From Eledone cirrhosa (lineage: Eukaryota), in assembly GCA_964016885.1 (NCBI GenBank), contig OZ024747.1, positions 67,518,001-67,582,000 of the forward strand: a stretch of 64,000 bases of DNA, given 5' to 3'. The translations under genes and the position numbers were made by a program. The first letter of the stretch is position 1. Each line of letters begins with the position of its first letter. This document shows positions 335 through 64,000 of the stretch, in pieces. The notes under the pieces are model-generated. The model was not told where the DNA came from. It ran no database searches and saw only the letters and a list, made by a program, of their open reading frames with translations.

Positions 335-38648
<38,314 letters not shown>

Positions 38649-47059: not shown

Positions 47060-48685
47060 TGTGAGCGTGTGCTACTTTGAGAGGATAAGAGGTATGGAGT
47101 GTTCCAGATTGTGAAACAGTGTGCTAGAGAAAACCAAGATGTAGTGCAGGAAAACTGTATCCAAAATGACAATGGAGCACTTACTATGTTTGGTGCAGAG
47201 AAGAAAGAGGCATGAAAGTGATACCACAAGAGACTAATGAATCAAGAGAATAAATCAGGCCTATCCCATGTAGACCCAACTGAGACCAGACATAAATATT
47301 GTTAGTGGGGTGATAGACAAAGCAGTTAAGGATACAAAGGTAGGGGAGGCAGCTGGACCAGCTAGTATAGTTGCTGAGATGCTAAAAACCTCTGGCATGA
47401 TAGCTTATGAACTAGTCAGATGCATAATTAATCAAGTAATACAAGATGGTGTCATATCCAATGAATGGTACAACAGTATCATTGTGAACTGCTAAAATAG
47501 TAAAGGTGGTGCACTAGAGAGAGGTAACTACAGAGGCATGAAGTTGATAGACCAGGTCATGAATGTTACTGAAAGGGTTATAGCATAACTTATTAGCGAC
47601 AGAGTTAAGATAGATGAGATGCAGTTCAGATTTATATCAAGTAAGGGTACTATTGATGCTCTCTTTTTGGCTACAGAAGAGGTACTTAGTTAAGAGTAAG
47701 CCGCTGTACCTGGATATATGTGGATCTGGAAAAGGCCTTTGATAAAGTACTCTGCTCTGTACACTGGTGGGGGCTTAGAAGGTTAGGTGTAAACGACTTC
47801 AAATATAGAAGTGCAACCAGTAGTTGAGAGTTGGCAGAGAGTACATTGAGGAAGTGCAGGTGGGGATCCATCAGTCTTCAGTCCACTTCCATTTATCATT
47901 GTCTTTCAAGACATTACAGAAAATTCTAAAACTGTCACGCCATGAGAAATCCTTTATGATGGTGATCTAGTTTTTACAGCTGAATCTGTAGGAATTAGAA
48001 GCAAAATTCTAGGCATGGAAGAAAAACCTAGAATTGAAAAGCCTAAAAGTTAACCTAGCAAAGACTAAAGTCTTCTTAATAACTAGGAAGGACAGGAAAC
48101 TGTTAATGTCAGGGAAGTGGCCTTGCTCAATGTGTCAAAAAGGGGTGCACAGAAACTCCATAAGGTGCATACAGTGTAGACTATGGATGCACAGGAGATG
48201 TAGTGGGATTGCAGACATGCTAACAGAGAAGATAGACTTTATATTCAACAGATGCACAGGAGAAGTAAGCACTAAGTGCATTTATGAAATTGTTTCCATC
48301 TACATGGGAAGCTTCTTAGAAGTTGTTGACAGCTTTAGCCACCTACAGGACCTAATCAGCCTAATCAGCAGTGTGGGAAGTTTCTTTGAAAGTGTGATAG
48401 GCAGAGTAAGAATGGACTGGAAGAAATTTAAGGAATTGGTATCTCTGCTGACAAAAATGGGATTATCTCTGAGAATGAAGGGTAGACTGTATTATGCCTG
48501 CATGTGAACTGCAATGCAGTGAGACATGGGCTTTGACAGCAGAAGACTGGCTAGAAAGAAATGAAGTGAGTATCCTCTGACAGATGTGAAATGTTAGTGG
48601 GCATGAATGACATAGTATAAGCAAACTTAGAGAAAAACTTGGCATAAAAGGAATTGGATGTAATGTGCAAGAGAGAAGATTGTAA
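47060..48685 (+). mobile_element. Old decayed RTE LINE
   Basis: ORFs 47310 and 48034 (KVNLAKTK...WPCSMC...) homologous to the intact RTE. Confidence 0.85.
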
Positions 48686-49020: not shown

Positions 49021-53822
<4,802 letters not shown>

Positions 53823-54110
53823 CAAATAACGAAACGAAATTAAATTTCGTTTCGTTTGTAACTCACTTTTGTATGACTGACGCTTAAACAATTAAGTTAA
53901 AAATGTACATCCACATATGTATACTGAAATACTAGTATGCATATGAATACACACACGTATACATATGTAGATGTACCAAGTCTTTCACTGGTTACTTTAC
54001 TGTGAGTATCCAGCTATTCTGTATGTAAACACACAGACAAACCGGTTTTTAGAGTCATACTGGTTTTTGAGGAAACACCTTTCCTCTATTCTCCAGAAAG
54101 CCAGACAAGG

Positions 54111-54155
54111 AATATTGAACTAGTTTCGTTGTTGTTACAACTCATCAGCAATATT
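54111..54155 (-). ncRNA. Type-I hammerhead ribozyme (intact core)
   Basis: AATATTG-CTGATGA-GTTGT-AACA-ACAAC-GAAA-CTAG-TT-CAATATT; stem I extends into a further ~16-bp helix (54088-54183). Confidence 0.88.
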
Positions 54156-54581
54156 TACCTATCTACCGGCCTTTCTGGAGAATCGTAAAAGCACATATCG
54201 TTATATGCTTTTTCTATGAAAATTAGTAGTGGGCAGACTAATTTGCATAGAGTGTGAGTACGTACCGGTTCAACGGAGACGATAAAAACAAATAACGAAA
54301 CGAAATTAAATTTCGTTTCGTTTGTAACTCACTTTTGTATGACTGACGCTTAAACAATTAAGTTAAGTTTTTAACTTAATTGTTTAAGCGTCAGTCATAC
54401 AAAAGTGAGTTACAAACGAAACGAAATTTAATTTCGTTTCGTTATTTGTTTTTATCGTCTCCGTTGAACCGGTACGTACTCACACTCTATGCAAATTAGT
54501 CTGCCCACTACTAATTTTCATAGAAAAAGCATATAACGATATGTGCTTTTACGATTCTCCAGAAAGGCAGGTAGATAGGTA

Positions 54582-54626
54582 AATATTGCTGATGAGTTGT
54601 AACAACAATGAAACTAGTTCAATATT
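54582..54626 (+). ncRNA. Type-I hammerhead ribozyme (inverted copy, one G-U in stem II)
   Basis: AATATTG-CTGATGA-GTTGT-AACA-ACAAT-GAAA-CTAG-TT-CAATATT. Confidence 0.83.
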
Positions 54627-54848
54627 CCTTGTCTGGCTTTCTGGAGAATAGAGGAAAGGTGTTTCCTCAAAAACCAGTATGACTCTAAAAACCGGTTTGT
54701 CTGTGTGTTTACATACAGAATAGCTGGATACTCACAGTAAAGTGACCAGTGAAAGACTTGTTACATCTACATATGTATACGTGTGTGTATTCATATGCAT
54801 ACTAGTATTTCAGTATACATATGTGGATGTACATTTTTAACTTAATTG

Positions 54849-54901
<53 letters not shown>

Positions 54902-54960
54902 CATATATATACATATATATATATACATATATATATATACATATATACATATATATATAT

Positions 54961-55298
54961 GGAGGCACATGGCTTAGTGGTTAGAGCATTGGCCTTGCAA
55001 TCAAAAGGTTGTGAGTTCAATTCTCAGACCGGGTGATGTGTTGTTTCCTTGAGCAAGACACTTTATTTCACATTGCTCCAGTTTACTCAGCTGTAGAAAT
55101 GAGATGATAGGGACTGGGGTCCATATCATTCCACTGCAAAGTGGTCGTGGAGGTGCCACGGAAAAAAAGCACCCAGCACTCACTGTAAATGAGGTTGGTG
55201 TTAGGAAGGGCATCCAGCTGTAGAAATCAAGCCAGAATCAGTTCCCGTCCCACACTTGTAAGCAGAGAAAAAGCGGACATAAAATGAAATGATGATGA
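54961..55298 (+). mobile_element. tRNA-derived SINE family 2 with RTE-type tail
   Basis: A/B boxes; reverse complement of 9818-10162. Confidence 0.88.
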
Positions 55299-62213: not shown

Positions 62214-64000
62214 TATAGTGGCCAGGAGGGAAGCTAGGAGACAAGTGTACTTCGCAAGAAGGGAAGCAGAGGAAAGAAATTTCAAGCATGTTCTACAACA
62301 CGAGGCCCAAATCGTGAGGTGTTCAGGATTGCTAGGCAATGTGTCAAGGAAAACCGTGATATTGTCGGGGAGAAATGTGTCCTTAATGATGATGGTGTAC
62401 TTGCCATCACTGACGCTGATAAGAAGGTAGCATGGAAGTGTCAGTACGAAAGGCTACTAAATGAGGAGAATAAATAGGAGAAAGACAGTCTGCCCCACAT
62501 CGATCCAATAGAGGGACCAGCAGTGTTAGTCGAAGGTAGTATAATAAGTAAGGCAATCAAAGATATGAAGACGGGTAAGGCGGCTGGGCCTTTGGAAATA
62601 GTTGCTGAAATGCTGGGACACACCATGGTCACCCGGATAGTAAACCAAGTCATACAGAATGGGGTTGTTCCGAAGGACTGGCATAGCAGCAGCATCATTA
62701 ACTGCTACAAGGGTAAAGGAGATGTCCTAGATAGGAGTAACTATAGAGGCATTAAATTAATCGACCAGGTCATGAAGGTCACAGAAAAAGTAATAGCGCA
62801 ACTAATCAGAGAGAGAATTGATCTAGATGAAATGCAGTTCAGGTTTGTGTCAGGTAAAAGTACCACAGACGCTCTTTTCATTGTACGACAACTACAGGAG
62901 AAGTACCTAGCTAAAAGTAAACCCCTATACTTAGCTTTTGTCGACTTGGAGAAAGCCTTCGACAGAGTCCCCCGTTCCATTATCTGGTGGGCTCTTAGAA
63001 AACTAGGTGTTGATGAATGGCTTGTGAGAGCTATACAAGCCATGAATAAAGAAATAGTCAGCAAGGTTAGAATTAACAACGAATATAGTGAAGAGTTTAG
63101 CGTAAAAGTTGGTGTTCATCAGGGCTCTGTTCTTAGCGCCTACTATTTATTATTGCTCTTCAGGCTATAACAGTGGAGTTCAAGACTGGCTGCCCATGGG
63201 AACTCTCCTATACGCAGATGATCTAACGCTCATAGCTGAATCAATGGCCGAACTAGAGAAGAAATTCCAAACATGGAAGCATGGCCTAGAATCAAAAGGC
63301 CTTAAAATTAACCTGTCTAAGACTAAAGTTCTAGTTTGTAGGAAGGAAAATAGGGCGCCGGTCCCATCCGGGAAATGGCCATGCTCAGTGTGTAGGAATG
63401 GAGTAGGTAGAAACTCCATTTTATGTCCCAAATGCAAAGTATGGGAGTATGAAAGATGTAGTGGGATCACAGGTAAGCTAACTAAGAACATAGATTTTAT
63501 ATGTGGCCGGTGCTCTGGTGCAATAAGTAGCAGCAAGTGCCCACAAAATACTAGCTCACTCCATTGCACAGATGGTTCTATAGAAATAGTGGACAGCTTC
63601 CGTTACCTGGGTGACAAAATCAGCAGTGGGGTGGTGGTGGTGGTGGTGGTGGTGGTGGGGTGCTCTGAAAGTACAGTAGCTAGAGTCAGAACTGGATGGA
63701 AAAAGTTCAGAGAGCTTATACCACTATTAGCCGCTAAAGGGTTCTCCCTAAAAATGAAAGGCAGGCTGTATGATGCCTGCATACGAACAGCAATGTTGCA
63801 TGACAGTGAGACCTGGGCATTGTGTGCAGAGGATATACGCAGACTAGAGAGGAACGAAGCTTGCATGCTCCGCATGAAAGACGACAGCTGTATAAAAAAG
63901 TGCAGGGCAATAAAAATAGACGGTAGCCACGGAGTAGGCAGACCCAGAATAACCTGGGACAACTTGATAAATTCCGACCTCACACACTTACACCTCTCCA
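62214..64000 (+). mobile_element. RTE LINE copy, 5'-truncated and frameshifted, runs off the window
   Basis: ORF 62523 RT motifs; very similar to 23240-25120; (GGT)n expansion and internal deletion near 63870. Confidence 0.92.

Follow-up and report, generated by a model that had tools for sequence, protein, structure and literature searches.

The hammerhead motif at 54088..54183 on the minus strand of the window (the whole 64,000-nt stretch of DNA analyzed here) belongs, as its ribozyme, to a non-coding unit of 466 nt and is not a feature of the collagen gene that surrounds it. We propose, with a probability of about 0.8, that the locus is a retroelement of the non-LTR retrozyme type, non-autonomous and carrying a hammerhead, which is built from this 466-nt unit and was inserted recently into the first intron of a fibrillar collagen gene in an octopod. 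The proposal draws on the architecture of the ribozyme, on the head-to-head arrangement of two nearly identical arms between (TA)n-rich flanks and on a family of variant copies in public sequencing runs.

Architecture of the ribozyme and of the palindromic locus

The motif, a type I hammerhead with extended stem I, was recognized by sequence, fold, the Rfam HH9 model and a structure scan. Direct reading of the minus strand places stem I in seven pairs between 54155-54149 and 54117-54111, the core elements CUGAUGA and GAAA at 54148-54142 and 54127-54124, and stem II in five Watson-Crick pairs (54141-54137 with 54132-54128) closed by a 4-nt loop. The CUAG of helix III occupies 54123-54120 and the GUU triplet 54120-54118, with the predicted cleavage site between 54118 and 54117. 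This reading confirms the intact core, the 7-bp stem I and the perfect 5-bp stem II that an earlier note had described from the letters, and the continuation of stem I through an internal loop into a further helix was found as well, as an outer helix of 13 bp (54183-54171 with 54100-54088). For the 96-nt RNA a fold of -35.3 kcal/mol (z = -5.03) is predicted, an energy equalled in 0 of 200 shuffles. A structure-aware scan over both strands of the 64 kb gave two matches, this hammerhead and its mirror at 54589 (+), against a mean of 0.03 matches in 100 block shuffles, none of which combined a stem I of at least 7 with a stem II of at least 5. The Rfam model HH9 (RF02275) aligns with 38.6 bits (E 7.7e-8), which stays under its gathering score of 52; the gathering-score scan of the whole window consequently returned no hammerhead and a single weak tRNA-like match. 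The HH9 alignment misses most of that model's helix III, while the internal loop of stem I is in register with the model and the terminal base of loop II is an A, two features that bear on a possible tertiary contact between loop 1 and loop 2. The palindrome also gives rise to many miRNA-family matches below cut-off, which were rejected.

All elements of the canonical metazoan core (CUGANGA, GAAA, NUH and G10.1-C11.1) are present, and helix III consists of an A-U pair closing CUAG. Together with a helix I of 7 bp and a helix II of 5 bp, this is the geometry of the canonical metazoan form, for which the available text of PMC4209133 gives about 6 bp in helix I, about 4 bp in helix II and 1-2 bp with a palindromic loop of 2-4 nt in helix III. 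The minimal hammerheads (min-HHRs) of Penelope-like elements (PLEs) have, in the same text, a helix II of 7-8 bp, a helix I of 4-5 bp and one additional base separating positions 9 and 10.1; in our motif helix I is longer, helix II is shorter and no base is inserted at that point. Judged from its sequence, the motif belongs to the canonical metazoan type I hammerheads, and its helix III, weak and palindromic, would need a second copy. The dimer-type helix III of the earlier note is thus upheld, whereas its label of a minimal hammerhead gives way to canonical type I under the definitions in that part of PMC4209133. Helix III resembles that of the axolotl HHR_Amex1, one pair with a palindromic tetraloop (accessible portion of PMC7229834).

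In the computed optimum of the monomer the first three core bases pair with the loop of helix III; when the active fold is imposed, the energy is -27.7 instead of -35.3 kcal/mol, a gap that is overstated because the folding program has no term for the hammerhead core. With the same proviso, the predicted non-active optimum is in line with poor activity of a monomer. An axolotl retrozyme with a one-pair helix III and a palindromic tetraloop reached 6% monomer cleavage in 1 h (PMC7229834, in the part available), and eight of nine predicted Xenopus dimers are given as without cleavage in the accessible text of a preprint (bioRxiv 10.64898/2026.07.22.740005). The isolated 8-nt palindrome of helix III pairs at -6.6 kcal/mol; a two-copy cofold produced an intermolecular helix but no clean double hammerhead, and it is not used as support.

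The left arm of the locus (53901..54366, minus strand, 35% GC) is one full 466-nt unit, of which the hammerhead occupies the middle. Its longest stop-to-stop frames measure 57 aa in the sense and 60 aa in the antisense direction, none exceeds 60 codons even when the unit is closed to a circle, and the circular fold is a chain of hairpins at -156.6 kcal/mol (z -10.9, 60 shuffles) with 67% of the nucleotides paired. At its 3' end the arm continues into a partial tandem, an 85-nt repeat of the unit start (53816..53900, minus strand) that is 100% identical to 54282-54366 and joins (TA)n. Across a centre of 4 nt (54367..54370) it meets, head to head, the inverted right arm (54371..54850, plus strand), which comprises a full unit (54371-54836) and 14 nt of the next. 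(TA)n-rich microsatellite sequence borders the left arm (53460..53815), taken as the insertion target, and the right arm (54851..54960). The two arms are identical at 476 of 480 positions, hence the insertion is young. Both arms exceed one unit and run through an uncut hammerhead, and their 3' ends differ by 71 nt. The hammerhead cores lie 441 bp apart on opposite strands, and the structure scan finds one sense copy only per strand. The mirror hammerhead (54554..54649, plus strand, antisense to collagen) was found by the structure scan and scores 34.4 bits with HH9, again below 52; its C11.1 is changed to U (54609), which turns the conserved G10.1-C11.1 pair into G-U.

Near-perfect arms of 480 bp around a 4-nt centre could also be produced by a fold-back chimera during assembly, in which case there would be one real arm and the ribozyme would be unmasked. 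No strand-change joint occurs among the joints listed in any of the compared runs, so the inverted junction is known from this assembly only; short contigs, for their part, would not be expected to span a perfect palindrome. We give this artefact a very slim chance, as one of the four arm differences (53993) is a segregating variant of the family, the arms have different 3' ends, unique sequence lies beyond both flanks, and such structures are normal for this class of element in the available parts of PMC8557442 and PMC4209133. At 53993 and 54744, where the arms differ, both letters segregate in sequencing run X1, about 83% carrying that of the right arm. This difference is a hint that two template molecules, or a template that had been edited, were involved and not a single fold-back with later mutation.

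The copy family, its neighbours and its variation

Among 24 public sequencing runs listed, 20 contain part of the unit, with word shares of 0.20-0.89 and at least half of the unit in 9; the 20 span 17 organism codes and 16 studies. For 16 of these 20 the match consists of word shares alone, and X2 and X3 come from the same sample as X1. The containing runs include none on record as RNA and so do not speak to expression. Contigs were compared with one unit in X1, X6 and X14, the runs with signal, of which X1 may be the source of the window and is hence not independent. X1 holds 1,024 variant contigs of the 466-nt unit, 525 of them at 99% identity or above, 342 at 95-99%, 123 at 90-95% and 34 below 90%, so that the unit forms a repeat family; their summed depth of 1.75e5 to 6.9e5 over full bins is not a copy number. 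The junctions recur as well. Among the X1 loose ends listed, 12 contigs depart from the unit at 54282 to enter a TA run, exactly where the left arm ends, and among the X1 joints listed 6 contigs pass from 54366 into the unit start. This head-to-tail joint is present in all three runs with signal, at depth 10-17 in X6 (11 contigs) and X14 (2 contigs). In these two non-source runs the unit itself has a depth of about 10-20, with higher local peaks in X6, and X14 contains a single 503-nt contig that closes on itself, roughly 96% identical and at depth 10.

The spread over organism codes and the closed contig of X14 might suggest that the unit is also a free circular replicon moving between animal species. 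Trace DNA of a related octopod would, however, be expected to assemble alike, a high-copy repeat first, the hammerhead is present in one polarity only, and the organisms and library types of the runs are coded, with 16 of the 20 matches given as word shares; we therefore attach hardly any weight to this idea. Low-depth closed contigs fit related octopods or trace DNA equally well, and we draw no conclusion on horizontal transfer. Exact-pattern scans of metagenome contigs and of viral contigs gave 0 matches each.

Several other repeats lie in the window. An apparently intact LINE (49310-52444, minus strand) with a 1,044-aa frame encoding AP-endonuclease, reverse transcriptase (RT) and PHD domains shares the intron and the collagen strand with the hammerhead. 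As this unbroken endonuclease-RT frame (ORF 52444-49310) starts 1.7 kb downstream of the hammerhead on the same strand, the ribozyme could in principle make the 5' end of the LINE. This is extremely doubtful, since a TA tract of 356 nt and another tandem repeat lie in between, other copies of the unit stop in TA runs at the fixed point, and other LINE copies in the window, though possibly truncated, have no adjoining hammerhead; ribozyme families searched upstream of the neighbouring LINE gave no match at E <= 1. The RT frames near the unit are of the AP-endonuclease/PHD LINE type, and broken LINE relatives are found on the plus strand at about 22500-25070, 47400-48500 and 62300-63700.

On the far side of the left (TA)n tract, 52701-53463 forms a second partial tandem, in which 324 nt are repeated at 97% with a spacing of about 410 nt. 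It has a short inverted copy, a 34-bp hairpin beside a TA run, in a layout like that of the hammerhead element; it gave no ribozyme match and could represent either the 5' part of the LINE at 49310-52444 or a further non-autonomous element. Directly adjoining the right TA flank of the hammerhead element is a 317-nt repeat that has a tRNA-like head and is probably a SINE (54963-55279, plus strand); a second copy, 96% identical to it, lies at 9852-10168 (minus strand). Two decayed hammerhead-like cores on the plus strand (30271-30305 and 31816-31842; CUGAUGA ... GAAACGU with palindromic ACGU), near TA runs and devoid of stem I, are possibly old Penelope-type remnants. A 497-aa frame at 3789-5282 (+) has no Pfam match and is presumably similar to the C-terminal portion of a non-LTR element with a restriction-like endonuclease. 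A dispersed repeat family (families D14-D20) is represented by 13 copies in the window, at 1401-1485 and in 12 more places up to 45033 (+).

The substitutions among the copies of the unit are distributed unevenly over its fold. Of 16 sites listed, 6 keep a pair in the sense-strand fold, 2 break one and 8 are unpaired, the two breaks comparing with 6.4 expected (P about 0.016); in the antisense fold the same sites keep 2 pairs and break 8, with 6 unpaired. With the reservation that the sites are non-independent and the fold is predicted from this copy, the pattern points to constraint on RNA of the ribozyme sense. A U-U mismatch in stem II, carried by about 22% of the X1 depth, accounts for one of these breaks and runs counter to a retrozyme reading. 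Variants fall on none of the 15 core positions; about 0.5 of the 16 sites would be expected there, so this is not used as support. Read in the ribozyme sense, 10 of 12 transitions are A/G (two-sided P 0.039).

Cephalopods are characterized by extensive A-to-I editing. The A/G bias could stem from A-to-I editing before reverse transcription or from A-U pairs tolerating G-U, and selection for a fold rich in A and U accounts for this bias as well, the direction of change not being established. A bolder version, in which a recently active cephalopod retrozyme family has its A-to-I-edited RNA written back, editing drives its sequence change and head-to-head insertion acts as an off switch for intronic ribozymes, is speculative and in our estimate unlikely.

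Probable position in the collagen gene and predicted fate of the ribozyme in its transcript

Gly-X-Y collagen exons run along the minus strand from 26854 downward. Upstream of them, the exon at 34469..34679 (minus strand) is 97% identical to the Octopus bimaculoides 'collagen alpha-1(XI)', which is its sole match among 54 candidates, and the most upstream collagen exon in the window (38451..38648, minus strand) has a phase-1 acceptor and no in-frame start codon. The latter is about 81% identical to the homologue, which points to an octopod host probably belonging to a different species, and begins where the homologue's signal-peptide segment ends. This N-terminus, about 50 residues including a hydrophobic, signal-like stretch, has no counterpart in the window: residues 1-51 reach a best E of 0.81 in tblastn, whereas six later segments of the homologue match at E <= 1e-10. 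Between 38700 and 64000 there are five candidates combining an ATG, a hydrophobic stretch and a donor, none of which is like the homologue, and a permissive search for exon 1 returned only noise among the first 80 matches listed. Because the signal segment is unmatched, the later segments match and the phase-1 acceptor falls exactly at the boundary, exon 1 would most likely lie beyond 64000, as far as a predicted protein can guide. The hammerhead would then very probably be located in collagen intron 1, 15 kb upstream of exon 2 and within an intron of more than 25 kb.

The intronic placement suggested in the earlier note is therefore supported by the unmatched signal-peptide exon and the six matching segments, whereas the special link with collagen that it implied is not, the ribozyme being part of a high-copy mobile unit. 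Retrozyme copies in introns amount to about 42-44% in two Xenopus genomes (bioRxiv 10.64898/2026.07.22.740005, accessible text), so that an intronic copy is unremarkable.

Transcription in the collagen direction produces the antisense arm first and the ribozyme arm afterwards. In folds at five transcript lengths, 67 of 69, 167 of 169, 216 of 219, 255 of 259 and 277 of 281 nt of the sense arm are paired with the upstream arm, the last being the stage at which the ribozyme is complete. Forcing the active fold in the full palindrome gives -786.1 against -857.1 kcal/mol, a cost of 71 kcal/mol; all these figures describe equilibrium, not kinetics. In the collagen pre-mRNA the ribozyme is therefore predicted to be masked, in all likelihood, by the opposite arm. 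By symmetry the predicted masking holds equally for transcription from the other side, and only a transcript starting near the palindrome centre would leave the ribozyme exposed. With the antisense arm preceding the ribozyme and the further sense copy needed for a dimer missing, cleavage of the collagen pre-mRNA is not likely in these models. Between the two fates that the earlier note had considered, masking is thus borne out by the predicted pairing (277 of 281 nt and 71 kcal/mol against the active fold), while co-transcriptional cleavage does not emerge as likely with the antisense arm in front and a single sense copy. The insertion is unlikely to matter for collagen expression.

Intronic hammerheads of the HH9/HH10 type in amniotes are few-copy and highly conserved. 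The octopod motif is like them in its type I topology, the internal loop in stem I and its location on the sense strand of a large intron, and its best Rfam match is HH9. That the core is intact and lies on the sense strand of collagen, in what is probably intron 1, may accordingly suggest a ribozyme co-opted by the host to cut or tune the collagen pre-mRNA. In contrast to HH9/HH10, however, it is a young copy of a high-copy repeat family, with arms identical at 476 of 480 positions and an antisense twin, and in contrast to HH9 it has a shorter helix III, the alignment passing over most of that helix at 38.6 bits against the cut-off of 52. With the antisense arm transcribed first, 71 kcal/mol set against the active fold and a second sense copy missing for the dimer, we regard co-option as highly improbable. 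The insertion is better viewed as a passenger, and its self-masking may be the reason why the intron tolerates it.

Integration and relation to retrozymes and Penelope-like elements

The reading of the locus as a young retrozyme-type insertion combines traits of two systems. The unit is like the metazoan non-LTR retrozymes of coral, mussel and axolotl, as the accessible text of PMC7229834 portrays them, in being short, non-coding and below 50% GC with a canonical type I hammerhead, and further in its head-to-tail junctions, its strongly self-paired fold and its many copies, full arrays being presumed here from the joints. It departs from them in its 466-nt unit and in a locus that is a partial tandem with an inverted copy rather than an array, and its expression and circular forms are putative. 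Its size is slightly above the 150-450 bp given in the available part of PMC7229834 and within the 51-972 bp of the preprint extract (bioRxiv 10.64898/2026.07.22.740005). By the activity criterion of 'two consecutive units' in that extract, the single sense hammerhead per strand speaks against an active retrozyme, an objection that concerns this copy and not the family.

The insertion itself is like that of PLEs, for which the accessible text of PMC8557442 names (TA)n as the target and describes incomplete tandems, a 5'-side copy in inverted orientation and a tail confined to one end. The locus has a partial tandem, an inverted 5'-side copy, a one-sided extension and a (TA)n target; it also shares with PLEs a fixed internal 3' end (available parts of PMC11167929, PMC4209133 and PMC8557442) and, with the hammerheads of PLE pseudo-LTRs (pLTRs), a dimer-type helix III and an opposite-strand hammerhead pair (PMC4209133, in part). 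Such pairs on opposite strands are described there at distances of 100-700 bp. Unlike PLEs, the unit has no RT or GIY-YIG ORF, and its extension of 71 nt exceeds the 30-40 nt given for the one-sided tail in the available PMC8557442 text, which counts against the reading proposed here.

These likenesses raise the alternative that the unit is the pLTR of an autonomous Penelope-like element and the locus a 5'-truncated tandem and inverted remnant with no life cycle of its own. The insertion signature would be the same (PMC8557442), truncated opposite-strand pairs are known for PLEs (PMC4209133), and retrozymes have been proposed to be non-autonomous PLE derivatives that arose from pLTRs (bioRxiv 10.64898/2026.07.22.740005), each according to the accessible text of these sources. 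Nevertheless, the end of the unit joins its own start in three of three runs with signal, no ORF next to the unit was seen among the 12 loose ends listed (of 12 + 30), and the hammerhead geometry is canonical and not the minimal PLE form as defined in the available part of PMC4209133. We consider a pLTR remnant improbable.

For the preferred reading, a retrozyme-type unit inserted by PLE-like machinery, we envisage the following course. Tandem copies elsewhere would be transcribed, and two hammerheads could complete each other's helix III via the palindrome and cut the multimers to unit length, after which the unit-length RNA may be ligated into circles. This is the scheme outlined for non-LTR retrozymes, in which dimeric hammerheads cut multimers and circles follow by ligation (accessible text of PMC7229834). 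A Penelope-like reverse transcriptase and endonuclease might then nick the (TA)n tract and copy the RNA, beginning at start sites within it. If both strands of the target were primed, or if a single cDNA folded back, the result would be two arms with their 3' ends at the target and their 5' ends facing each other at the centre. A PLE protein studied in purified form nicks DNA that is AT-rich and extends both of its strands, beginning at two sites inside the RNA and taking mainly RNA that is uncleaved (PMC11167929); these activities would lead to two 3'-anchored arms, unequal ends and uncut ribozymes, as observed here. Since both arms cross an uncut hammerhead and exceed one unit, the template would have been an uncleaved or circular RNA rather than a cleaved linear monomer; a circle and a linear read-through RNA both fit and cannot be told apart. 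Once inserted, the ribozyme would be paired away, since an antisense arm comes first in any read-through transcript.

We found no description of a cephalopod retrozyme in the literature covered by our incomplete searches, and supplementary species lists could include cephalopods. Our reading would extend hammerhead retrozymes to octopods. It would provide a very young copy whose junctions record integration: the 3' end is fixed and lies in (TA)n, the ribozyme is left uncut, and the twin is inverted. Such junctions bear on whether Penelope-like proteins mobilise retrozymes, and on whether they would do so from circles or from linear RNA.
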